This document shows, piece after piece, positions 5,796 to 62,165 of a stretch of DNA of 64,000 bases (position 1 is its first letter; the number at the start of each line of letters is the position of its first letter). The position numbers and the translations under genes are program-made. Source of the stretch: Candidatus Foliamicus sp. (lineage in GTDB: Bacteria > Pseudomonadota > Gammaproteobacteria > Steroidobacterales > Foliamicaceae); assembly GCA_965221325.1 (NCBI GenBank), contig OZ244880.1, one strand, 5' to 3'. A model generated the notes under the pieces. That model did no database searches. It worked only from the letters and a program-made list of their open reading frames with translations, and was not told the DNA's origin.

Positions 5796-6958
5796 CCGCA
5801 ACCCGTCTGCGGCGCTCTGCCGCCATCCTGCTGGCCTGGCTTCCCCGAAGCGTCGCACTGTTGCTCTGGTGGTTTCGGCGCATAAGCGCCATCGTGGACA
5901 AGGAAATGCGTCAGCTTTTTCGTGAACGCCTGACGATGGGCATGGTCGTGGGGCTGCCGCTCGTTCAGATCATCTTGTTCGGTTACGCCATAAACCTGGA
6001 TGTGCGCCACCTGCCCGCCGGGCTGGTGGATCATGCCGACACCTCCATGTCGCGGCAGTTGGTGAGCACACTGCAGGCCACCCAAGTGCTGAATTTCGTG
6101 GAGCGGGCCGCGCAGGCGCCGGAGCTATTGGACGCCATGCGCCGCGGCTCCATACGCGCAATTCTGTACATTCCCGCCGACTTCGAACGCCGCCTCAGCG
6201 ATGGCAACCGCCCTCTGGCTCAGCTCATGGTGGACGCCAGCGAGCCGGCCCGGATCAATGCCGCGGAACGCATTGCCCACTACCAGCCATTGCCTCGCGG
6301 CCAGCCCGGCCAGATGGTCATGTCCCTGGCAGTTCGGAATTATTACAACCCCGAGCGCCGCTCGGCCGTGCAAATCGTGCCGGCACTGGTGGGCGTGATC
6401 CTCAATTTCACGATGATCGTGTTTACCGCGGTCGCCGTGGTCCGGGAACGAGAACGCGGCAATCTCGAATTTCTGATTACCACCCCGGTGCGCAACTACG
6501 AACTCATGCTCGGCAAGATCGCTCCCTACATCCTTATCGGGCTTGCCCAGGTCACGATCGTGTTTTTCGCCGGCTCCTGGCTGTTCCGGGTGCCCGCAGT
6601 GGGTTCAGTACTCGACCTCTATCTGGCCAGCCTGGTGTTCGTCGCCGCCACGCTGGGTATTGGGCTTTCCGTTTCGACCTTCGCCAAGTCGCAATTTCAG
6701 GCGATCCAGTCGGCCATATTCTTCATGTTGCCGATGCTCCTGCTGTCCGGCTTCATGTTCCCTTTCGACGGAATGCCAAAGCTTGCCCAGTGGATCGGCC
6801 TGCTGTTCCCGCTTACGCACTTCGTGGAGGTCGTGCGCGGGATTATCCTGCGCGGCGCCACCATCGGCGACATGGCGGCGCAGATGTATGCGATATCGGG
6901 CTTGTTCGTGGTGTCCATCCTCATTCCAGTGCTGCGCTTCACCAAGCGCTTGGACTAG
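5792..6958 (+). CDS. ABC-2 type transporter permease
   Basis: An N-terminal TM segment and a large periplasmic loop are followed by five C-terminal TM segments (YbhS/YbhR-like architecture). There is a 4-nt overlap with the ATPase stop. Confidence 0.9.
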   Translation: MTATRLRRSAAILLAWLPRSVALLLWWFRRISAIVDKEMRQLFRERLTMGMVVGLPLVQIILFGYAINLDVRHLPAGLVDHADTSMSRQLVSTLQATQVLNFVERAAQAPELLDAMRRGSIRAILYIPADFERRLSDGNRPLAQLMVDASEPARINAAERIAHYQPLPRGQPGQMVMSLAVRNYYNPERRSAVQIVPALVGVILNFTMIVFTAVAVVRERERGNLEFLITTPVRNYELMLGKIAPYILIGLAQVTIVFFAGSWLFRVPAVGSVLDLYLASLVFVAATLGIGLSVSTFAKSQFQAIQSAIFFMLPMLLLSGFMFPFDGMPKLAQWIGLLFPLTHFVEVVRGIILRGATIGDMAAQMYAISGLFVVSILIPVLRFTKRLD

Positions 6959-6994
6959 GACTCGGGCTACGACACGGACCCTAAGCCGGGCACA

Positions 6995-7000
6995 TATAAT
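6995..7000 (+). promoter_or_regulatory. Candidate -10 hexamer for tRNA-Ser
   Basis: A perfect TATAAT lies 8 nt upstream of the predicted mature tRNA 5' end. Only a weak -35 (cgacac, spacing about 19) is present. Confidence 0.4.
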
Positions 7001-7008
7001 CCTCCCCC

Positions 7009-7099
7009 GGAGGGATGCCGGAGAGGCCTAACGGCGCTGATTCGAAATCAGATGGGGGCGATTCGCCCCACGTGGGTTCGAATCCCACTCCCTCCGCCA
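7009..7099 (+). tRNA. tRNA-Ser (anticodon CGA), class II with long variable arm, CCA encoded
   Basis: I folded it by hand. The acceptor GGAGGGA pairs with TCCCTCC, and the anticodon loop is TTCGAAA (anticodon CGA). The variable arm is GGGGCG-att-CGCCCC. The T arm is GTGGG-TTCGAAT-CCCAC, followed by discriminator G and CCA. Confidence 0.9.
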
Positions 7100-7199
7100 G
7101 ACCGCCCGGCTCTTGTAGTAAACACGAATGTCATTCCTCCGCGCTCTATGTCCTTGGCTAGTGGGGTCGGCTCATCGGTAGGTTGGCTGATTCTATGAT

Positions 7200-7661
7200 T
7201 CAGATATTCACGTGTTTAGTGAACAGAGGAAGAGATAGCTTCTCAAGTTCAATCCCCTTCATCAAGAGTATTTTTTTATAGAAATCAAGCAATGTATCGT
7301 GTATCTCCTCAAGATCGTCTAGCATGACTTGGCACCCGTCTGATGAGTTCCTTCGGAAGTTATGGTCCCGATAAAAGGTGTGAAACAACCTATTGCGATT
7401 CTTCACCACTTTCTCAAATTCGCCCTCCACGCCTTTCAAGATCTTGTTGGATTTTGCGGCTTGCTTGAAAAGTTGTCCCAGCGTTCTTCTGTTTATGGCC
7501 CGATAAATCTCTGTCGCACGAAACGGGTCCGGCTTAGAGAGCAAAGCCGCTGCACAAGCCTCTGAAGTAAAGAGAATGGTGCCCAATTCGCACTCAAGCA
7601 ATTGTGCGGCTTCCGCCACCATTCCGAATTTCTGGTATACATCCTCTATATTGGTAGGCAC
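7200..7661 (-). CDS. Hypothetical small protein with a HEPN-like RNxxxH motif
   Basis: The 153-aa ORF is low-GC and looks all-helical. It contains KNRNRLFHTF, which fits the R-N-x-x-x-H (Rx4-6H) motif of HEPN RNase domains. The size is typical of stand-alone HEPN toxins. The functional assignment rests on this motif only. Confidence 0.5.
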   Translation of the reverse strand: MPTNIEDVYQKFGMVAEAAQLLECELGTILFTSEACAAALLSKPDPFRATEIYRAINRRTLGQLFKQAAKSNKILKGVEGEFEKVVKNRNRLFHTFYRDHNFRRNSSDGCQVMLDDLEEIHDTLLDFYKKILLMKGIELEKLSLPLFTKHVNI

Positions 7662-51643: not shown

Positions 51644-51703
51644 TGGATGGCTCCGCTGGCGCAGTTGTAATGCTACAAGTGAGCATAAGGAATGTCAATC
51701 GCC

Positions 51704-52924
51704 TGTACCGGTTCACGACATATGGGACTGAGCGTGTTCGGCCGTCCTGTATTTTCGAAGGTATTGCATTGGTGTGAGCAAGTCCAGGGCGTAGTGAGGT
51801 CGGACATGGTTGTAGAAGTGCTGGTATTGTGCCAAGGCGGGTGCGGCGTCCTTGACGGTGAGTTGTCCGCTGTAGAGGTTCCAGAACTCGGTTTTTGAGC
51901 TGTCGTTGGCGCGTTCGACGACGCCGTTGAGCTGGGGGCTTTTGGGTGGCAGTACGGCGAGGGGGATTTGGAGCGTCTGGCAGGCGTCTTCGAACTCGGC
52001 GCGGAACTCGGCGCCGCCATCGACTTGCAGGGATTGCAGCGGACAGGGCAGTTCGGTTCGGACTGCTTGCAAGAAGCGCCGGGCGTTGTTGGCGGTAGCC
52101 CGGGAATACACGCGCACGACCAGTTGTTTGCTGACCGGGCAGACGGCCTTGAACTCTTTGAGCGTATCGCCGTCGCGCGACACACTCATGTGATCGATCT
52201 GCACCCACTCGCCGGGCTGAGCGGCCTTCACGCCGGGACGCCAGCGCTGGGCGTGTCCGTTGGCGAAGTTGCGCCTTCGCTTGGCCGTCACCCGCCCGCG
52301 GCAGAACGCGCACGGCGTGATCCGGCGCAGGCATACGCCCTTGACGAGGATCCGTCCAATGGTCGATTCCGACAGGAGGATTCCTTCGCGATCCAGCATC
52401 ACCTTAAGGCGCCGCTTGCCCATGAACGGATAGTGCTTGCGCATCCGCCATACGGCCCATTCCTGGGCCCGCGTCCAGCGCGCGGGATGGGTGCGTCTCG
52501 GGCGGCGGCTTTTGGCTGCCAGCCCCTTCACGCCTTGAGAACGGTAGCGCGCCTGCCAGCGGTAATAGGTGGATCGGGACCAGCCGACCGCGCGCAGAGC
52601 CGCGGCCTCGCCGCACCCCTCTGCGCGTAACTCCCGATAGGTCTCGATCTTGCGTAAGCGCTCAAATGCATCGCCCGGCGTGGTATCGTCCATGCGCACA
52701 CGTTTCATCCCCAGGGACTTGATTTGCATGGTTCGGCTCCTTTTTGTTTGTTCGAAAAACAAAGGCTAACCGAACCCGCGCCCCGGCGAGCGCCGGGGCG
52801 CACCTCTTTTCCTTGCGTCGCTACGCTCCCTGCGGAAAAGAGCTGCGCCGTTCCCGCCCCATCAGAGCAGAAACCACCCCGCCATCACTTCGGCACCAGT
52901 CCCACATGTGTCTGAACCCGGACA
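51704..52924 (-). mobile_element. IS481-family insertion sequence, copy 1 (1221 bp)
   Basis: The boundaries are defined by where the two copies stop matching. The termini are TGT...ACA, with imperfect inverted repeats of about 27 bp (TGTACCGGTTCA...GGGACTG versus TGTCCGGGTTCA...GGGACTG). It carries a single DDE transposase ORF. Confidence 0.9.
51713..52762 (-). CDS. IS481-family DDE transposase
   Basis: The 349-aa protein has an N-terminal HTH (GWSRSTYYRWQARY) and an rve-type integrase core (WVQIDHM...QVDGGAEF...N.VVERAN). Confidence 0.9.
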   Translation of the reverse strand: MFFEQTKRSRTMQIKSLGMKRVRMDDTTPGDAFERLRKIETYRELRAEGCGEAAALRAVGWSRSTYYRWQARYRSQGVKGLAAKSRRPRRTHPARWTRAQEWAVWRMRKHYPFMGKRRLKVMLDREGILLSESTIGRILVKGVCLRRITPCAFCRGRVTAKRRRNFANGHAQRWRPGVKAAQPGEWVQIDHMSVSRDGDTLKEFKAVCPVSKQLVVRVYSRATANNARRFLQAVRTELPCPLQSLQVDGGAEFRAEFEDACQTLQIPLAVLPPKSPQLNGVVERANDSSKTEFWNLYSGQLTVKDAAPALAQYQHFYNHVRPHYALDLLTPMQYLRKYRTAEHAQSHMS

Positions 52925-52996
52925 TGACATTCGGTGTCAACCGCCTTGGCAGGCAATTGAGTGCCGGCTGGGGAGGCGCGGAAAAGCGCTCCGACT

Positions 52997-54037
52997 ATGA
53001 CTGATGAGACTGAAGCAGCACTGGCCGAACGCCGTATCCTGTCCATAGACGGGGGCGGAATCCTCGGTACGTTCCCAGCCGCCTTTCTGGCAGGTCTTGA
53101 GGGGCACTTGAAAGGCCAGCCGATAGGGTCGTACTTTGACCTGATAGCGGGCACTTCCACTGGCGGCATCATCGCCATTGGGCTGGCAATGGGTCTGCGC
53201 GCCTCGGACCTTCTCGAACTCTACGAAAAGCGCGGCCCCTGCATTTTCGGGCAGGGGCGCGGACAGGCCACAGACTTTATCATGGACAAGCTGCGATTCG
53301 GTCGCCAGCTCGTCATGAACAAACACGATTCCGGGCCTCTGAGACGTGCTCTGGAGGAAACACTCGGCGACAAGCGGATTGGCAATGCGAACACCCGCCT
53401 CCTAATCCCTGCGTGGAACCCAGTGGCGCGGTCTGTATACATCTACAAAACTGCGCATCATGACCGTCTTCGTAACGACTACAAGTCCCTTGCTGTAGAT
53501 GCGGCTCTGGCCACAGCCGCAGCGCCAACCTACTTCCCGCGGCACATCACGCAAAACGCAGTCGGGCTGACGGACGGCGGAACGTGGGCGAACAACCCCA
53601 CGGCCTTGGCTGTTGTTGAGGCGATCACGATGCTGGGATGGTCCGGCGAATCCCTTCGCGTCCTCAGTCTCGGGAGTCTGGAGGAGACTTACAAAATCAG
53701 GAAGTGGGCCGGCATCGGACCGCTCGGTTCCAAAGTCATCAAGCTGTTTATGGACGGTCAGTCGCACAGCGCGATGGGAATCGCAAAGCTGCTCACCGGG
53801 CACGAGCATGAACGGGCGGCCATTTATCGCATCAACCACACAGTCCCCCATGGCGCATACAAAATGGATGACACGCGTGTCGTTCAGGAACTCAAGGGGC
53901 TGGGATATCACTTCGCACGCGATCGGAAACCGGTTCTCGATCCCGTGTTCTTCAGCCAGCCGGCAGAGGCATTCGTGCCCGCTCATGAGTTGGATCAGGA
54001 ACCGGAGAAGGCATCATCTGAGAGGTGTTCCGCATGA
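52997..54037 (+). CDS. Patatin-like phospholipase (CapV-like CBASS effector candidate)
   Basis: It has the oxyanion hole SIDGGGILG, the nucleophile elbow GTSTGG and the catalytic Asp in LTDGGTWANNP. The stop overlaps the next gene's ATG (ATGA at 54034-54037). Confidence 0.88.
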   Translation: MTDETEAALAERRILSIDGGGILGTFPAAFLAGLEGHLKGQPIGSYFDLIAGTSTGGIIAIGLAMGLRASDLLELYEKRGPCIFGQGRGQATDFIMDKLRFGRQLVMNKHDSGPLRRALEETLGDKRIGNANTRLLIPAWNPVARSVYIYKTAHHDRLRNDYKSLAVDAALATAAAPTYFPRHITQNAVGLTDGGTWANNPTALAVVEAITMLGWSGESLRVLSLGSLEETYKIRKWAGIGPLGSKVIKLFMDGQSHSAMGIAKLLTGHEHERAAIYRINHTVPHGAYKMDDTRVVQELKGLGYHFARDRKPVLDPVFFSQPAEAFVPAHELDQEPEKASSERCSA

Positions 54038-54980
54038 CTATGGATGTCAGAAAGTATTGTGAGTTTTTGGAACAGGTCGCGCGCGAGATTGATATTCCGC
54101 CAGGCAAATATCGGGACGCCGTGGACAGGTATGAGGCAGTGGGGCGTTGGCTTGAAGACGCGGAGTATCCCGATTGCCGCGTCGAGCCCAGCATATACGT
54201 GCAGGGATCGTTTCGGCTGGGAACTGTAACGCGCCCCCTCCGAGGCGGGATCGAAGCGAGCTACGATATTGACCTAGTCTGTGAGTTGGCAATCCAAAAG
54301 AAACGGACAACACCAGGGTCCGTCAAAGCGATGGTCGGTGACCGTCTCCAGGGGCACGGGACGTACCGACAGCTTCTTGATGCTGAGGGCCGCCGGTGCT
54401 GGACACTGGAGTACGCCGAGCAGGATGGCGTGGGCTTCCATCTGGATGTCCTGCCTGCTGTCCCGGATGCGCTAGGGTTTCCGGACACTGCGATCGCGAT
54501 AACCAATAAGGCGGACAACTGCTACTCTTGGTCAGCCAGCAATCCCCGAGGCTACGGGGATTGGTTTGACAGCAAGAACGCAACCGCCTTCCAGCGCGTT
54601 GCCTTCGAACAGAAGCAAAGTATGCAGCGCCGGGAATCGCTGGTTTTTGACAGCATCGAAGAGGTTCCCGACCAGCTAGTCCGCACGCCGCTTCAATGTT
54701 CGATTCAGCTTATGAAGCGGCATCGTGATCTGCGCTTCGATCACTATGACCGCATCGACTACGCGCCGATCTCGATTATCGTCACTACGCTTGCAGCGCA
54801 CCTTTACCGCAACGAGCCGGATGTTTACTCGGCCCTGGCAGGAATTGTCGGCCGGCTGAATGCGCATGCGGCTCTCATTGAGGGCGGGGCCGTCGACCCA
54901 ACAGTGGCGGCGATAGGGCTCATCCAGCGTCGCGCAGACGGCACGTAGTATATCGGGAATCCTGTTAACCCGGAAGAGAA

Positions 54981-56201
54981 TGTACCGGTTCACGACATAT
55001 GGGACTGAGCGTGTTCGGCTGTCCTGTATTTTCGAAGGTATTGCATTGGTGTGAGCAAGTCCAGGGCGTAGTGAGGTCGGACATGGTTGTAGAAGTGCTG
55101 GTATTGTGCCAAGGCGGGTGCGGCGTCCTTGACGGTGAGTTGTCCGCTGTAGAGGTTCCAGAACTCGGTTTTTGAGCTGTCGTTGGCGCGTTCGACGACG
55201 CCGTTGAGCTGGGGGCTTTTGGGTGGCAGTACGGCGAGGGGGATTTGGAGCGTCTGGCAGGCGTCTTCGAACTCGGCGCGGAACTCGGCGCCGCCATCGA
55301 CTTGCAGGGATTGCAGCGGACAGGGCAGTTCGTTTCGGACTGCTTGCAAGAAGCGCCGGGCGTTGTTGGCGGTAGCCCGGGAATACACGCGCACGACCAG
55401 TTGTTTGCTGACCGGGCAGACGGCCTTGAACTCTTTGAGCGTATCGCCGTCGCGCGACACACTCATGTGATCGATCTGCACCCACTCGCCGGGCTGAGCG
55501 GCCTTCACGCCGGGACGCCAGCGCTGGGCGTGTCCGTTGGCGAAGTTGCGCCTTCGCTTGGCCGTCACCCGCCCGCGGCAGAACGCGCACGGCGTGATCC
55601 GGCGCAGGCATACGCCCTTGACGAGGATCCGTCCAATGGTCGATTCCGACAGGAGGATTCCTTCGCGATCCAGCATCACCTTAAGGCGCCGCTTGCCCAT
55701 GAACGGATAGTGCTTGCGCATCCGCCATACGGCCCATTCCTGGGCCCGCGTCCAGCGCGCGGGATGGGTGCGTCTCGGGCGGCGGCTTTTGGCTGCCAGC
55801 CCCTTCACGCCTTGAGAACGGTAGCGCGCCTGCCAGCGGTAATAGGTGGATCGGGACCAGCCGACCGCGCGCAGAGCCGCGGCCTCGCCGCACCCCTCTG
55901 CGCGTAACTCCCGATAGGTCTCGATCTTGCGTAAGCGCTCAAATGCATCGCCCGGCGTGGTATCGTCCATGCGCACACGTTTCATCCCCAGGGACTTGAT
56001 TTGCATGGTTCGGCTCCTTTTTGTTTGTTCGAAAAACAAAGGCTAACCGAACCCGCGCCCCGGCGAGCGCCGGGGCGCACCTCTTTTCCTTGCGTCGCTA
56101 CGCTCCCTGCGGAAAAGAGCTGCGCCGTTCCCGCCCCATCAGAGCAGAAACCACCCCTCCATCACTTCGGCACCAGTCCCACATGTGTCTGAACCCGGAC
56201 A
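54981..56201 (-). mobile_element. IS481-family insertion sequence, copy 2 (1221 bp), flanked by a 4-bp AGAA duplication
   Basis: It differs from copy 1 at only three positions that I could find (55020, 55333, 56158). AGAA occurs at 54977-54980 and again at 56202-56205. Confidence 0.9.
54990..56039 (-). CDS. IS481-family DDE transposase (copy 2)
   Basis: It is 349 aa and differs from copy 1 by one residue (VRNELP versus VRTELP). Confidence 0.9.
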   Translation of the reverse strand: MFFEQTKRSRTMQIKSLGMKRVRMDDTTPGDAFERLRKIETYRELRAEGCGEAAALRAVGWSRSTYYRWQARYRSQGVKGLAAKSRRPRRTHPARWTRAQEWAVWRMRKHYPFMGKRRLKVMLDREGILLSESTIGRILVKGVCLRRITPCAFCRGRVTAKRRRNFANGHAQRWRPGVKAAQPGEWVQIDHMSVSRDGDTLKEFKAVCPVSKQLVVRVYSRATANNARRFLQAVRNELPCPLQSLQVDGGAEFRAEFEDACQTLQIPLAVLPPKSPQLNGVVERANDSSKTEFWNLYSGQLTVKDAAPALAQYQHFYNHVRPHYALDLLTPMQYLRKYRTAEHAQSHMS

Positions 56202-56442
56202 AGAACTTCGCCGACCGCTGGCACGAGGATAATCACGCACGCGCACACGCTTTCTTTGCCTGGGCGGATGCTCTTCAGAAAGACCTTCTCAACATCCTAG
56301 CCGAGACGAATCCGCGTCTGATCAAGGAAGGCCTAGGCCGCGCATTGGGTACGGCGGCGGCAGCCAAGCACTTCAATGTTCTTGGTCTGGCGAAGCCGGT
56401 GGAAACACCGCCGCACATTCACATCACCAGCCCTCCCAAGCC

Positions 56443-57189
56443 GTGGAAAGGGGATTGACTGAGAACATTCAAAATCAAATCGGTGAGCTTACGGCGATCC
56501 ATAGGGGGCTAAGCAAGGCAGCCGGGCGGAACGGTGAAACAGCACTATCGGGCGCGTTGCCGTTCGCAGCGTCTGCTGATGGACTGGAAACTATCACGGA
56601 CTCCTTTGATGTAGAGCTGGCGATTCCCAACGACTTACCCGACACGCTGCCGTGCGTTAGGGAAACGGGTGGCCGCATCGGAACCGATTACGAACATCGA
56701 AATCCGGACGGAACGCTTTGTCTGGCTGTCCCTGTCGCGCAGCGCTGCGTCTTCCTCGAGGAGCCATCGCTACTCGGGTTCGTCAACCGGCTAGTGATCC
56801 CATACCTTTATGACTTCTGCTTCTTCGAGAAATATGGTCATCATCCCTTCGGCGAAGCCGCGCACGGCGATGAAGGGATATTGAGTCACTACCTGGATGC
56901 GCTAGATCTAGACGGCGATCTCGACGCACTCAGGGTGATCTGTTTTCTCTTTGAACACGGTTATCGTGGTCATCACGACTGCCCATGCGGGAGCGGACGA
57001 AGAGTGAGAGCGTGCCACGGGCCGGCGTTATTGACGCTACACAAAGCCCACAATGAACAGTCCCTCCGCACGGATTTCATGGCCATCTTGAAAGCGTGCG
57101 TCGCCAATTCTGAGAACGGTCGACTTTCTCTTCCCACGCCGTTGCATCGTCAAATACGACGTCTTCTGAAGAAGTTCCGAGACTATTGA
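56443..57189 (+). CDS. E2-like (UBC-fold candidate) protein with a C-terminal SEC-C-type Cys/His knuckle; third gene of the CBASS-like module
   Basis: EHRNPDGTLCLAV resembles the HxN...C active-site stretch of E2 enzymes. HHDCPCGSGRRVRACHG resembles the SEC-C metal-binding motif. The start overlaps the end of the nucleotidyltransferase frame. The assignment rests on motifs only. Confidence 0.5.
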   Translation: MERGLTENIQNQIGELTAIHRGLSKAAGRNGETALSGALPFAASADGLETITDSFDVELAIPNDLPDTLPCVRETGGRIGTDYEHRNPDGTLCLAVPVAQRCVFLEEPSLLGFVNRLVIPYLYDFCFFEKYGHHPFGEAAHGDEGILSHYLDALDLDGDLDALRVICFLFEHGYRGHHDCPCGSGRRVRACHGPALLTLHKAHNEQSLRTDFMAILKACVANSENGRLSLPTPLHRQIRRLLKKFRDY

Positions 57190-57313: not shown

Positions 57314-58015
57314 TCACACCTTCCTAACCGTCCACAACACCTTGCCCACGATGTGCGCCTCATCAGCCAGACAGGTGTAGTCCGCGTAGTCGGGGTTGGC
57401 CGACTTCAGCCGCAGCCGGGGCCGACCGTCCGGGTCGCGCAAGGGCTCCACGCGCTTGACCACAAGCCCGCCGCCGTCCCACAGCACGAATAACTCTCCG
57501 GTGGCGGGCACACGGCGGGACGTATCCACCAGGAGCCGGTCACCCTCGGACAACTCAGGCTCCATCGACTCGCCGCGAACGCGCAGCGCCCGGACGGCGC
57601 CGGGGACCGCGCCGCCCTCGTAGCGGATCATTCCCTCGGGCAGGAACCAACGGGCCTTCTCCTCGACGAACTCCTGCGCGAGAGCGCCGGGACCGGCCGA
57701 AACCTCGACCTCCACCTCCGAGATCGCGGCGAGGGGCACAGGAGATTGCTTCGTCACTGACGGTGTGGGTCGCTCCTTCGCCTTCGGTTTGCCCCGCGGC
57801 GGCCGCTCGGCGTGGCGCAGCGCTGCGACATCGCATTCAAGCACCCCGGCGAGCTTCTCCGAATCCACGTGGGACAGCACCTTGGGGCTGCCGCGCTCCA
57901 GGAACCCGTGCATGTAGCTGACGTTGCGGCCGATGGCGAGCGAGACCTGGCGCATGGTGAGGCCGCGCTCCCAGAGCAGGTCCTGGATCTTCCGTCGTAC
58001 CGGGTCGTTGTTCAT
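57314..58015 (-). CDS. LexA/CI-type repressor (XRE HTH + S24 peptidase)
   Basis: The N-terminal HTH reads LTMRQVSLAIGRNVSYMHGFL. The C-terminal S24 domain has VRGESMEP (Ser nucleophile) and VVKRV (Lys). Confidence 0.85.
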   Translation of the reverse strand: MNNDPVRRKIQDLLWERGLTMRQVSLAIGRNVSYMHGFLERGSPKVLSHVDSEKLAGVLECDVAALRHAERPPRGKPKAKERPTPSVTKQSPVPLAAISEVEVEVSAGPGALAQEFVEEKARWFLPEGMIRYEGGAVPGAVRALRVRGESMEPELSEGDRLLVDTSRRVPATGELFVLWDGGGLVVKRVEPLRDPDGRPRLRLKSANPDYADYTCLADEAHIVGKVLWTVRKV

Positions 58016-58106
58016 CGCAGCCCCTCGCAGGCATGACGCAAAGCATAGCGTAATCGCTACAAGACGCTATTGTCAACGACACTACGCGTTCGTAATGTGG
58101 CCCGCC

Positions 58107-58460
58107 ATGGACGCACTCTCCACACGCCTCGGCCATGCGATACGGGCCCACCTCGACCGCACCGGGACCTCCCCGGCGCGGCTCGGGGCCGACGCGCTGG
58201 GCGATCCGTCCTTCGTGCTGCGGCTCAACCGCGGCGGAGCGCCAGGACGGCAAGCGCCGGACGTAACAACCGGGGAAAATCGGACGCTGAAAGGCGCTGA
58301 TATGGCCGCGCCAGCGGACACCGCCGCACACCCTAAAAAAAGGGGGGGAGCTGCTGCCCGGCCCGCTGGACCTGGCGCATTCGCCGCCGATGGCACCGGC
58401 GAAATTCCGCCGGCGGTGTGGTGCCGGAGCGGGGGCCATCCTGTGCACACGCAATTGTGA
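58107..58460 (+). CDS. Hypothetical HTH-like protein divergent from the repressor (Cro-like position)
   Basis: It begins MDALSTRLGHAIRAHLDRTGTSPARLGADALGDPSFVLRLNRGG, which resembles a short HTH N-terminus. The call rests mainly on the divergent arrangement with the CI-like gene. The C-terminal half is low-complexity. Confidence 0.35.
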   Translation: MDALSTRLGHAIRAHLDRTGTSPARLGADALGDPSFVLRLNRGGAPGRQAPDVTTGENRTLKGADMAAPADTAAHPKKRGGAAARPAGPGAFAADGTGEIPPAVWCRSGGHPVHTQL

Positions 58461-58478
58461 CAATGCGAGAATCGCGCC

Positions 58479-58835
58479 ATGAGAGGCCCGCCCTGGACGC
58501 CTGCCGAGGATGACGCCGTGCGCGCTGCCGCGGGCTGGCGTGAATGGCGGTCGGTCGCGGAGTGCCTAGGCCGGACTCATGCGGCGGTCCGCAAGCGGGC
58601 GGAGCGCCTGGGCGTCACAACGGCCCGCGCTCCGCGCCCGCCGGAACCGAAAGCCGCCCGGCTGTGCCGGCGCTGTGGCGAGCCGGCGAAGCCGCCGCGG
58701 TTGCACTATTGCTCGGACTATTGCGCGGCGCTGGCGCAAGGGCATTGCCCCGCCTGCGGGCGCAAGCTGGCCGGCGGCGAATGCCCCGACACCTTTTGCC
58801 GGTCGCGGGCCGATCCGGCCCTGCCTGGCGGATAG
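58479..58835 (+). CDS. Myb/SANT-like HTH protein with a Cys-rich tail
   Basis: PWTPAEDDAVRAAAG...WRSVAECLGRTHAAVRKRAERLG fits a SANT/Myb repeat. The tail contains CRRC...CSDYC...CPAC...C. Confidence 0.45.
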   Translation: MRGPPWTPAEDDAVRAAAGWREWRSVAECLGRTHAAVRKRAERLGVTTARAPRPPEPKAARLCRRCGEPAKPPRLHYCSDYCAALAQGHCPACGRKLAGGECPDTFCRSRADPALPGG

Positions 58836-59292
58836 GTCCGCTGCCGAAGGTGCGGGAAATTCCCGCAATTCCGGGCGGATTCCCGGATGCTGGACCCTTC
58901 GGAGGTGTCGAAACTCCCGCCTACGGGCGATAGAGCGGCCTATTCTCCGGGCCGCTGCCGTCCTGGACGTCCAGTAACCGATTGCACGTCCTGGGGCCTT
59001 GCTCGCGCCTACGGGCGATTTTGCCGCCTGTGACAGCCCGCATGGGCGGTGAATTTCCGAGGTCCTGGACGCTGTGGCGAAAATTCCATCAGGTATATTC
59101 GGGCTTGCCGCTTATTTCGCGGGCGAAACCCATGCCGGGTTTTCCCGCCAAATAGAACAGCCCGGCATACAAGCAGCGGTTAGCTCCCGCCGCTTGGAGT
59201 GAATAGGTGGGGTTTCCTTCCCTGCGAAGTAAGCTGCAATGGCCCGGCACCTTGCGGGCCGCAGATACACGCCATGCTTGGAGGGGATCGAA

Positions 59293-60972
59293 ATGAAAAA
59301 GAAGTTTGCCTGGATTGCTATTCCTCTAGTTGCGGTACTGTGCATCGGTACTTACGTTTTCTTGTCGGACAGACCGCAAAAACCTGATACTCTCGCCGAA
59401 TCCGAATCAGCGCCGGACGCTTCCGGCAGCTTTCCTGACTCCCAATCGCCAATCGTCGCGGAAAACATGACCGGCGTTGCAACGGGCGCGCCGAATGAGC
59501 GGCCTCCCGAAAGGAAAACCAACACCATAGGCGACCTAACGAACTTCACTTTGACTCACGGCGACATTGGTTACGTTGATGTCAATTCGATCATGCAAGG
59601 CCGCGATCCGTACAGCATCGTGGACCTGTTGCAGTCCCATCACGAACTGACCGGCGCGGACGATTCGCTTGAAATCGCGATCGAAAGCATCTCGGAGAAT
59701 GAAATCTGGGGCCAGGAAGTGTTCTTCCGCCAACTCATCGACGGGCAGCCCACAAACGAAGTTGGAAAATTATTCTTCTCACCGGACGGCACTGTTACCC
59801 GTGTTTATTCCGACCTGCTCAACACCGAATCACTCAACACGAGCGATATCGTGATCCTTGCGCCGGAAGCCGAAGCGATGGCGGCGAATGTAGCGGCCCG
59901 TTACGCCGAAAATATTGAGGTTCATCTTGATTGGAGCGACGTGCCTTTAACCTTCACGACGCATTCTGCCGAAATGCGTTACGAACTGGATTCCGATTCG
60001 AACCTTGTGCGGCTTTGGCACGTAGAAGTGACCATTGACGGTCCAGTCATGGATGGGGTTCGAGTATCCGTTTCTCCTGAGACCGGCGAAGTGGTCCGAG
60101 TGGATAGCGCGTTGGTTTACTTCCAAGCCACTGCCGACCATTCGATCCATGTAGTCGATGCTGACAGGCCGGCCCCTGGTAAATCAGGTGCCCGGACAGT
60201 CGTATGGAAGGACGGCGAATGCATGATTAAATCGTTGTGCAATGACCCGAAGTACACCGCTCCACTGGAAACCGTCAGAGACGTCATAGCCGACGTTCAA
60301 TCAGTCAGCAAGCGGTATATCACAAACCCAATTACCATTATGGTGAATTACCCGAAAAAACTCCTGAACGCTGAAGGAGCTTGGGACGAAAGCAGCGGCA
60401 CGATATATATACGCGTCGACGTTACCGACCTTGAGGGGATAGCCGCGCATGAGGCCTATCATGCAGCGTCGCAGTCTCAGGACGGACCGGTGGAGCACGG
60501 CTTGGTGTACGCCATGACGGCTTTAAGGGGCTGGGACAGTTGGCACAATAAAGGCACTTCTGTCACAAGGACACGTCGCACTTATACAAGTGACGGACCG
60601 CATACTACCAACATGATGTATCGGGTTGCCCAGGAACTCGGCGACTATGACGCGGCGTTTCAGTTCGTCTTGGAGGTTGACAAGCTAGGCCCCTCTAGCA
60701 TTTACGGGCTTGTAACAGCAATGAAATCGGTATCCATCGACCTTAAGATTCCGATTTCCGTTCATAAAGTCTTGCTGGCGGTGGGTGAAATCGACCAGGC
60801 CACCTACGAGAACATGCTATTGGACTCGATCTCGCCGTATGGCATTGGTAGCCCGGACTGGGTGGACTACATGCGCCAACAGTTCGAAGACCAGGGATGG
60901 GACGAAGCCGAAGCGTGGGAACGGGTAATCCGATGGATTGAACGTTTCCTACGCAATAAGGGGTCCGGTTGA
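59293..60972 (+). CDS. Secreted/membrane-anchored zinc metalloprotease candidate (PepSY-like propeptide + HExxH)
   Basis: The ATG at 59293 is preceded by GGAGGGGA. The N-terminal anchor is MKKKFAWIAIPLVAVLCIGTYVF. A PepSY-like segment reads RLWHVEVTIDG...VSVSPETGEVVRVDS. The HExxH site is AAHEAYHAA. The gene is low-GC. Confidence 0.6.
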   Translation: MKKKFAWIAIPLVAVLCIGTYVFLSDRPQKPDTLAESESAPDASGSFPDSQSPIVAENMTGVATGAPNERPPERKTNTIGDLTNFTLTHGDIGYVDVNSIMQGRDPYSIVDLLQSHHELTGADDSLEIAIESISENEIWGQEVFFRQLIDGQPTNEVGKLFFSPDGTVTRVYSDLLNTESLNTSDIVILAPEAEAMAANVAARYAENIEVHLDWSDVPLTFTTHSAEMRYELDSDSNLVRLWHVEVTIDGPVMDGVRVSVSPETGEVVRVDSALVYFQATADHSIHVVDADRPAPGKSGARTVVWKDGECMIKSLCNDPKYTAPLETVRDVIADVQSVSKRYITNPITIMVNYPKKLLNAEGAWDESSGTIYIRVDVTDLEGIAAHEAYHAASQSQDGPVEHGLVYAMTALRGWDSWHNKGTSVTRTRRTYTSDGPHTTNMMYRVAQELGDYDAAFQFVLEVDKLGPSSIYGLVTAMKSVSIDLKIPISVHKVLLAVGEIDQATYENMLLDSISPYGIGSPDWVDYMRQQFEDQGWDEAEAWERVIRWIERFLRNKGSG

Positions 60973-61208
60973 ATAACGGCCTTGTCTTTGGCGAGGGTCG
61001 CGGTCGCGTTTCCGGGCGCGTCGCGCGCCATGCGGAGCGGATCGCCCGCACGCATGGCGCGCACTTCCGCTGCCGTTCTATTCCTGGCGAGGGCTGGCGT
61101 TACTGGTTCACGCACCCGGACGGCGGGCGGGCGGCCAACCGCATGACGGAGCAGGCCATCCGTTCGGGCCTGGCGGCGGAGGGCCTGGACATTCGCCGCC
61201 TGGCGTAG
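60969..61208 (+). CDS. Hypothetical small protein (79 aa)
   Basis: The ORF fills the gap between the protease and the integrase and has a non-ATG start. I recognise no motif. Confidence 0.25.
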   Translation: MNNGLVFGEGRGRVSGRVARHAERIARTHGAHFRCRSIPGEGWRYWFTHPDGGRAANRMTEQAIRSGLAAEGLDIRRLA

Positions 61209-61211
61209 CGG

Positions 61212-62165
61212 CTAGAGATATTTCGCGACCGCGCCGCGTTCGGCGGTAGCGCCGGCGCTGTAGTGGGCGACCATCCGGGCGGTTTTCCAGCCGCCCGCCA
61301 GCATCGTTTCGGTGGTGGACGCGCCGCGGCGTGTGAGTTCGGAGGCGAGGCCGATCCGGGCGGAGTGGGCCGTGATCCGCCCGGCGATCCCGGCGGCCTT
61401 CGCCAGCGCCTTTACGCGGTTGGCGATCTGATCCGGGCCGATGCCGAGCAAGGGCGATTCGCTGCCCTGGGCGTCGGCGGCCAGTTCGAGCAAGGCTGCG
61501 GCTGCGCTGTTCTTCACAAGGCGCATATCGGCGGCGCTGCCGTCCGGGTTCGTCTTGGAGCGCCGCACGGCCACAACGGCGCAGCCTGGGGCGTCCTGGG
61601 CAGTCTGCACGTCCGCCGCGGTGACGGCGGCGGCTTCGGAGCGGCGCATCCCGGCGTAGAACAGCAAGCCGAGCATGGCCGCGTCCCGGCGGCTTCGGGT
61701 TTCCTGGCGGGCGGGGCTTTCGGTTCCGCGTCCATACGGGGCGGCCTGGCGGGCCGCGTTCAGCATTGCGCCGACATCTTCGAGCGTGAGGGCGGCGGAC
61801 TGGCCGCGCCCGCGGTCCTGGCGCTGGCGGCGGATGCGTTCGAGCGCGGCCTGGGTCTGCGGGCCTTTCGAGTTCGGCTGCCCATTGACGCGGGCGCGGT
61901 AGGCGATGGCGGCGGCGGCCTGGGCGATGCTGGCCGGCGCTTTGCCGGCGGCTTCGAGGGCGCGGAGGTAGGCGGCGAGTTCGCCATCCGCCGCGGCCTG
62001 GGCGGGTTCCTGGCCGCGCCAGGTATCGAACCGTGCGGCCCATGCGGCGTACGCCTTGATCGTGTTGGCGGCCCGCGATCCCGCGAGGTCCTGGCGGTAT
62101 TCGGCGCTGGCCGTCGCGGGTGCGGTTTCCTGGGCGGTTGTGAGGGCGGTTGCTAGCGGTGTCAT
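61212..62165 (-). CDS. Tyrosine-type site-specific recombinase/integrase
   Basis: The N-terminal SAM-like domain contains NTIKAYAAWAARF. The catalytic residues are in YAGMRRSE (Arg), AHSARIG (HxxR) and GGWKTARMVAHY (Trp/His and the Tyr nucleophile). Confidence 0.88.
   Translation of the reverse strand: MTPLATALTTAQETAPATASAEYRQDLAGSRAANTIKAYAAWAARFDTWRGQEPAQAAADGELAAYLRALEAAGKAPASIAQAAAAIAYRARVNGQPNSKGPQTQAALERIRRQRQDRGRGQSAALTLEDVGAMLNAARQAAPYGRGTESPARQETRSRRDAAMLGLLFYAGMRRSEAAAVTAADVQTAQDAPGCAVVAVRRSKTNPDGSAADMRLVKNSAAAALLELAADAQGSESPLLGIGPDQIANRVKALAKAAGIAGRITAHSARIGLASELTRRGASTTETMLAGGWKTARMVAHYSAGATAERGAVAKYL

Follow-up and report, generated by a model that had tools for sequence, protein, structure and literature searches.

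We analyzed a window of 64,000 nucleotides (nt) on contig OZ244880.1 (assembly GCA_965221325.1) of Candidatus Foliamicus sp., an uncultured gammaproteobacterium with a GC content of about 63%. Positions 52,925 to 57,189 of this window carry three genes that a preliminary description, made from the letters of the sequence, had taken for a module resembling a system for signaling against phages by cyclic oligonucleotides (CBASS): a patatin, a cyclase of the CD-NTase type (a nucleotidyltransferase like cGAS and DncV), and an E2-like protein. Searches with Pfam, NCBIfam, and PADLOC profiles and against solved structures in the PDB confirmed this three-gene module. In addition, profile searches of the three proteins, which had been proposed as a check, showed that the genes are not chance open reading frames (ORFs): the PADLOC profiles cover all three proteins over their full lengths, with E-values of 6e-95 for the phospholipase effector, 3e-112 for the cyclase, and 5e-73 for the E2. 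Three lesions were found in the locus, namely an insertion sequence (IS) junction upstream of the first gene, a premature TAG in codon 305 of the cyclase gene, and an IS in codon 316 of the same gene.

The phospholipase and E2-like genes

The first gene, capV (52997-54037, plus strand), has an intact ORF and encodes a patatin-like phospholipase effector of 346 amino acids (aa). The full patatin catalytic set noted earlier (GGGxxG, GTSTGG, and DGG) was read in its translation as IDGGGILG, GTSTGG, and TDGG. The protein is matched by Pfam Patatin (1.6e-26), by the NCBIfam equivalog CBASS_lipase with 227 bits (cut-off 200), and by solved CapV chains in the PDB at about 1e-29 to 4e-30. The conserved start, aligned with the relatives, is the ATG at 52997, and the GTG at 52961 is merely the first possible start. 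The stop codon TGA at 54035-54037 runs over the cyclase ATG at 54034, and this is the 4-nt ATGA overlap of the patatin and nucleotidyltransferase ORFs that had been described.

The third gene (56455-57189, plus strand) is also intact and encodes an E2-like protein (Cap2-type, E2-only) of 244 aa, which was identified by PADLOC and by AlphaFold and Foldseek. An ORF with an E2-like HxN..C stretch overlapping the end of the cyclase gene had been reported previously. Its active-site stretch is EHRNPDGTLCL, where H81 and C89 never vary within the family and N83 hardly does, and its start was refined: the family-typical start is the TTG at 56455, overlapping the cyclase stop as TTGA, and not the GTG at 56443. 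The closest relatives use TTGA or GTGA. An exact-product look-up of the 248-aa translation from the GTG found nothing on record, because the recorded gene call uses the TTG start.

The PADLOC profile PDLC00871, with 241 positions, matches residues 6-242 of this 248-aa GTG-start translation. A sequence search of the PDB gave no match to the E2, and Pfam found only a weak SEC-C-like motif. From 32 homologues, AlphaFold gave a model with a mean predicted local distance difference test (pLDDT) of 87, whose top Foldseek matches in the PDB were UFC1, the ubiquitin E2 variant (UEV) domains of TSG101 and Vps23, Ubc13, and Ubc9, with a probability of about 0.99, modest E-values of about 7e-3, and target TM-scores of 0.41-0.52. 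Together with the PADLOC match, these structures support the ubiquitin-conjugating (UBC) fold anticipated for the third protein. About 135 aligned columns cover the N-terminal half of the protein. The C-terminal half (residues ~140-244) is helical and is not covered by the UBC-fold alignment; its CPCG...CH motif, which is invariant, resembles a zinc knuckle (SEC-C-like).

Neither an E1 domain nor a JAB peptidase occurs in the operon according to the Pfam scan, and the operon is flanked by an IS and by the gene of an S24 repressor. The three core genes are the same in the relatives. Together with the matches of the E2 model, this agrees with the E2-only accessory gene of short type II CBASS suggested in the preliminary description.

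The cyclase gene and its two lesions

The 5' part of the CD-NTase gene (cdnG) lies at 54034-54980 on the plus strand. It holds codons 1-315 and two bases of codon 316, and its GS, DxD, and D motifs were read in the translation as GSFRLGT, YDIDLV, and FHLDVLP, as noted before. The frame meets a TAG at 54946-54948, runs on as YIGNPVNPEEN to 54980, and is then cut by an IS of 1221 bp at 54981-56201, here called copy B. When this IS and one copy of AGAA were removed in silico (54034-54980 joined to 56206-56458), a frame of 399 codons was obtained in which the TAG is the single stop. The 3' part (56206-56458, plus strand) restores the frame and encodes residues 316-399, which by alignment to SmCdnG of Serratia marcescens correspond to the E2-recruiting region. 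Thus, the in-frame TAG, the insertion at 54981, and the resumption of the frame to 56458 were all reproduced as first described. We also observed an ORF on the plus strand (56021-56458) that starts within copy B and reads into the last 84 cyclase codons, whose counterpart in SmCdnG recruits E2. The European Nucleotide Archive (ENA) annotation calls a 91-aa product at this position.

The repaired cyclase is matched over residues 6-376 by the PADLOC cyclase profile PDLC00780 and reaches 27.0 bits against Pfam DncV-like_NTFase (PF21654; gathering score 24.9). SMODS falls just under its score, and the NCBIfam cGAS/DncV-type model gives 35 bits at a cut-off of 150. The best solved-structure match is VcCdnG (9WOO, 4e-49), in three stretches covering residues 9-396, and the second is SmCdnG (8HSB, 6e-31). 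These results place the protein among the CD-NTases, as had been proposed, and not among generic MNT/KNTase families. By its nearest solved structures, the cyclase appears clade-G-like, and the operon does not appear to be of the DncV (clade A) type. The previously noted likeness to capV followed by dncV holds for the patatin-cyclase order; however, it does not extend to a DncV-type operon.

A database search with the repaired cyclase found thousands of homologues, the closest 82% identical. Among the best 120, nearly all have a length of 393-401 aa and align over 99-100% of the query, and among the species representatives of the Genome Taxonomy Database (GTDB), the best match is 81% identical. 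The family ends in ...KPW plus three residues and has no conserved C-terminal glycine. The near-invariant residue W305 is Trp in 13 of the 13 aligned homologues (~400 aa), and a single G-to-A change in TGG explains the TAG. About one-third of the long ORFs in the window end in TAG, by a crude count that includes spurious frames. A reading of the TAG as a recoded sense codon was rejected on this count and on the conservation of the Trp in all homologues.

The joint of the IS lies inside the invariant ENFA. The alignment to the 13 homologues is gapless there, and ENFADRWHEDN is invariant across the joint. Therefore, removal of the IS and one AGAA copy restores the ancestral cyclase sequence exactly. 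To judge from these alignments, the TAG and the IS are genuine, independent mutations of a once-normal cyclase gene. Gene callers record the 304-aa truncated cyclase (P0005) as the product, both on a contig of 2.45 Mb and on an ENA contig of 440 kb that shows 100% identity with the window along 20 kb. No uninterrupted cyclase sequence across the IS joint (an empty site) was found by exact search in metagenome contigs of the Joint Genome Institute (JGI).

One could suppose that the real cyclase is intact and that the TAG is a consensus error or the IS a mis-joined repeat, since the genome was assembled from a metagenome and the IS is a repeat with multiple copies. Nevertheless, a mis-join would not yield a clean 4-bp duplication whose removal restores the frame exactly, the change from TGG to TAG is a substitution, unlike the indels typical of long-read consensus errors, and a second contig, which differs in length, carries the identical structure. 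We regard an assembly artefact as extremely unlikely.

Loss of the promoter and of capH-capP upstream of capV

The preliminary description had listed two independent lesions in the cyclase gene with the other ORFs intact. This part stood, but the list was incomplete. The comparison with related genomes that it had proposed revealed a third, IS-associated lesion: the promoter and two regulatory genes are gone upstream of capV. A second IS copy (copy A) ends 72 nt upstream of the capV ATG, exactly where the locus as first described begins. The residual 72-nt CBASS leader (52925-52996, plus strand) aligns with the intact relatives from the very end of the IS.

These relatives (L002-L008), fetched by exact-protein look-up, each have a divergent gene pair upstream of capV, coding for a 127-aa helix-turn-helix (HTH) protein and a Peptidase_M78 protein of 294-298 aa (shortened in some short contigs). 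The pair is capH/capP, as indicated by PADLOC capH (3e-11), PADLOC capP (1e-52), and the CapP structure 7T5T (4.5e-10), so that CBASS in the relatives is a five-gene unit including the divergent capH-capP. Both genes were found in L002-L008, L010, and 13 further relatives. They are present in all relatives whose cyclase is at least 80% identical and, among the 38 loci with a cyclase identity of at least 54%, in 21, as counted over 80 species-representative loci plus the earlier loci, a tally that takes in several copies of one locus. In the 64,000-nt window, tblastn found neither capH nor capP. Also missing from the window are about 165 nt of intergenic DNA with a TTGACA box and an operator-like palindrome (GTGTTGTC...GACAACA). 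A consensus scan, which is weak evidence, found no sigma-70-like, outward, or hybrid promoter between the IS end and capV.

The other side of copy A is equally informative. In two related genomes of 2.4-2.5 Mb (L096 and L097; NadA 91-92% identical), nadA is followed by divergent nrtR and lhr. The synteny of the window with both genomes breaks off precisely at 51703, and the window has neither nrtR nor lhr. The last native chromosome before copy A (51644-51703, minus strand) is the remaining nadA upstream region of about 60 nt with its -35/-10-like boxes, a promoter-like TTGACA/TAGCAT site at 51698-51670. NrtR control of nadA may have been lost in the window. Since copy A has no target duplication and the synteny breaks at its other end, it is a rearrangement junction, joining the native nadA promoter region directly to the CBASS leader. 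Recombination between two IS copies best explains this joint, with the intervening DNA deleted or moved.

A working system requires an intact, expressible cyclase. Here, the cyclase gene has a TAG in codon 305 and an IS in codon 316, and the promoter region is missing. We consider it highly likely that capV-cdnG-E2 forms an anti-phage CBASS operon of the type II-short, E2-only kind, which is non-functional in this genome.

The IS481-like element

Copy A (51704-52924) and copy B (54981-56201) of the IS are both 1221 bp long and lie on the minus strand. They have the same orientation and are 99.75% identical, with three mismatches. The inverted repeats are imperfect, about 27 bp long, and begin with TGT. 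The transposase of copy A lies at 51713-52729/52762 on the minus strand. Pfam matched the transposase with rve_3, HTH_32, and LZ_Tnp_IS481, and its best NCBIfam match is IS481. The length, the single DDE (rve) transposase with an N-terminal HTH and leucine zipper, and the 4-5 bp target duplications are as in the IS481 family; however, the NCBIfam score of 176 bits is under the cut-off of 224.

An exact look-up of the transposase found at least four further IS sites (L091-L094), three in the same assembly (ENA ERZ26695514, contigs 3, 13, and 7) and one in a second assembly (ERZ26695579, ctg118641). These four copies are flanked by perfect 5-bp target duplications (AGCGG, TGCGC, GGGCG, and CGGGC), and copy B by 4 bp (AGAA at 54977-54980 and 56202-56205). 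Among the six copies, copy A is the sole one without a target duplication, as its flanks CGCC and TGAC differ. Three other copies in the same assembly have exactly the sequence of copy B, and this points to a recent burst of transposition. Copy A has diverged furthest, showing three differences, two of them private. Neither a distant-mode search of the IS DNA against PLSDB plasmids nor a search of its left end against JGI metagenome contigs found a match. A composite transposon of the form IS-capV-cdn'-IS was considered and rejected, since the outer flanks CGCC and AGAA are mismatched. At one of the further sites (L093), the IS separates two giant fn3/He_PIG/cadherin ORFs (3847 and 4442 aa) and may have interrupted a single adhesin gene there.

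Each IS copy contains a perfect 10-bp GC hairpin with a T-rich tail on the plus strand (52778-52801 and 56055-56078). It is placed upstream of the transposase start on the other strand, and about 120 nt separate it from the IS end next to capV or to the 3' cyclase fragment. To judge from its sequence, this hairpin is terminator-like and would block read-through into the flanking genes. With no promoter-like site in front of capV and this hairpin in the IS, the operon has probably been poorly transcribed since the upstream event.

These features also bear on the idea, already raised in the preliminary description, that the effector was decoupled from its activator. CapV, and possibly the E2, could be expressed from an IS-borne or hybrid promoter, with CapV activated by the nucleotide of another CD-NTase elsewhere in the genome, and the module would then still serve in defence or membrane lysis. 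In favour of this, the ORFs of capV and E2 are both intact and keep every catalytic and invariant residue, and identical IS ends adjoin both capV and the part with the 3' end of cdn and the E2 gene. Yet recent decay explains the intactness equally well, the window contains no second CD-NTase, and both the scan for promoter-like sites and the strong hairpin in the IS speak against expression from the element. Such a rewired orphan effector seems very unlikely to us.

Surroundings of the locus

To the right of the CBASS remnant, positions 57314-62165 hold genes resembling the rest of an integrative element. They code for an S24/LexA-like repressor (57314-58015, minus strand), a small Myb-like protein (58479-58835, plus strand), a 577-aa protein with a HEAYH metalloprotease-like motif and a GC content of about 54% (59239-60972, plus strand), and a tyrosine integrase (61212-62165, minus strand). 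No attachment repeats of an island were found between the nadA side and the integrase and repressor regions, which share only 9-mers, at chance level.

Elsewhere in the window, a tRNA-Ser (CGA) gene at 7009-7099 is followed by a low-GC stretch to 9900 (50-55% against about 63% for the window). For its three ORFs (152, 287, and 335 aa), neither Pfam nor PADLOC gave a match, and the stretch may be another integrated element. Nothing related to defence turned up when the ORFs of the island and these low-GC ORFs were scanned with Pfam and PADLOC.

Comparison with known systems

The E2-CBASS class was described in 616 genomes. About 74% of its cyclases belong to clade G, a C-terminal motif of the cyclase recruits the E2, and SmCdnG is the model enzyme (PMC12948482). 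The operon in the window resembles the SmCdnG-SmE2 system of Serratia marcescens (8HSB/8YJY; PMC12948482) in several respects. Both have an E2-only accessory gene with neither E1 nor JAB, a cyclase of about 400 aa whose nearest solved relatives are of clade G, overlapping and translationally coupled cyclase and E2 genes, and the HxN...C stretch in the E2. However, SmE2 is a protein of about 18 kDa, whereas the E2 in the window has 244 aa, with the extra helical C-terminal half and its CPCG...CH. In addition, SmCdnG uses a C-terminal glycine for conjugation, and the cyclase family described here has no conserved one. The effector also differs, being CapV in a family under CapH/CapP control, and the copy in the window is a pseudogene. 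VcCdnG (9WOO) is a clade G enzyme making 3'2'-cyclic GMP-AMP (3'2'-cGAMP), but its partner is Cap5, a SAVED-HNH effector (PMC12804361), and not CapV.

Compared with the capV-dncV-cap2-cap3 operon of Vibrio cholerae, the patatin effector likewise comes first and the cyclase second, with the logic of a cGAMP-activated phospholipase. In contrast, DncV belongs to clade A, and that operon has the E1-E2 fusion Cap2 and the JAB peptidase Cap3, whereas the operon studied here is E2-only.

Hundreds of CBASS systems have been reported to carry divergent CapH/CapP pairs. According to Lau et al. (bioRxiv 10.1101/2022.04.27.489752), the shared promoter is repressed by CapH, which CapP cleaves when DNA is damaged. 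Expression is high once capH is lost, and in the authors' model this leads to ectopic activation of the CD-NTase and to death. The closest relatives of the operon are alike in having the HTH repressor and M78 pair with a shared promoter, but the window has neither the pair nor the promoter and carries the IS in their place. All these family features (the CapV effector, CapH/CapP control, the long E2 with its C-terminal domain, and the cyclase with no conserved C-terminal glycine) are already covered by PADLOC profiles.

Decay of the operon

By analogy with the literature on CapH/CapP, CdnG, SmE2, and CapV, the divergent capH-capP pair of the intact relatives would hold the operon repressed until DNA damage. 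The clade-G-like cyclase of about 400 aa would then make a cyclic dinucleotide, most likely a cGAMP isomer, while the E2-like protein would bind and regulate the cyclase through its C-terminal region. The nucleotide would activate the CapV phospholipase, so that the membrane is destroyed and the infection aborted.

The most likely history of the copy in the window has two steps. First, IS-mediated recombination would have removed the regulators and the promoter, silencing the operon. Second, the nonsense mutation and the very recent IS insertion would have accrued neutrally while the IS was actively transposing. The upstream event is probably the older one and the insertion in the cyclase very recent, because copy A is the most diverged copy and copy B is identical to three others. 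As a gauge of relaxed constraint, we scored substitutions private to this copy at positions that no other family member varies and found none in capV, one in the cyclase (G43A), and three in the E2 (F61L, E95A, and G120D). All three counts are within the range of intact relatives, which indicates that the decay is young. Thus, capV and the E2 gene probably look intact because the decay is recent, and not because they are still used.

The family decays elsewhere as well. Five relatives, all of them species-representative genomes, have independently degraded copies (L012, L022, L026, L033, and L047; cyclase at about 6001-7200 in each), with internal capV deletions, frameshifts, and cyclase stops, and capV is usually damaged too. 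One of these genomes (L033) is close to that of the window, with a NadA of 90% identity, but the identity of its cyclase is only 54%. Therefore, its CBASS was acquired separately.

The preliminary description had suggested selection against a costly or autoimmune system. In such a scenario, disturbance or loss of CapH would have derepressed the operon, ectopic cyclase activity would have made CapV toxic, and knock-outs of the cyclase would have been favoured. A second hit could have been selected because the first was leaky, by read-through of the TAG or by a truncated but active cyclase that the E2 no longer regulated. The CapH literature allows for this possibility, as high expression follows capH loss and the model of Lau et al. 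includes ectopic activation and death. Moreover, both coding lesions fall in the signal generator, 33 nt apart and just upstream of the E2-recruiting C-terminal region, and capV shows no decay. However, the rearrangement also took the shared promoter region, so that the arrangement as it now stands would not be expected to give derepressed transcription. If two lesions struck the 2976 coding bases at random, the probability of a hit in the cyclase by both would be 0.16, the other decayed relatives usually have capV damaged too, and the IS is transposing genome-wide, with at least five other sites of the assembly occupied. With this chance of 0.16 and the third lesion upstream, selection is not needed to account for a cyclase that was hit twice. 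We judge selected inactivation, with its second hit as a response to a leaky first one, unlikely.

The three lesions could further be read as an ordered, selected collapse, in which an IS-disturbed CapH/CapP promoter made the E2-CBASS autotoxic and two successive hits just upstream of the E2-recruiting C-terminus followed, since the first truncation would have left an enzyme that was partly active and unregulated, with CapV, the E2, and maybe the IS-fused fragment (ORF 56021-56458) then kept for another role. This sequence of events is, in our opinion, quite unlikely. Neutral decay of a silenced operon is the simplest reading, and selection is not required.

Several points weigh against this reading of a silenced, decaying clade-G-like operon. 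The TAG and the junctions rest on assembled sequence, and the ENA contig may share reads with it. The clade G label comes from the nearest solved structures (VcCdnG and SmCdnG) and not from a phylogeny. The suggested order of events depends on three nucleotide differences among the IS copies. In addition, capV and the E2 gene might still be transcribed, as IS481-type elements can carry outward promoters. Finally, capV is without any sign of relaxed constraint, and this fits continued purifying selection too.

The locus is a degraded member of an already known CBASS family, and it represents ordinary gene decay with no new mechanism. The family is made up of a patatin effector, a clade-G-like cyclase of about 400 aa, a 244-aa E2 whose C-terminal domain resembles a zinc knuckle, and in most cases capH/capP. 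It occurs widely in uncultured Proteobacteria and in other phyla, and it repeatedly decays. This makes the family a reasonable candidate for the biochemistry of long-form E2 regulators, and the locus is one well-documented natural case of the loss of an abortive-infection defence in an IS-active genome.

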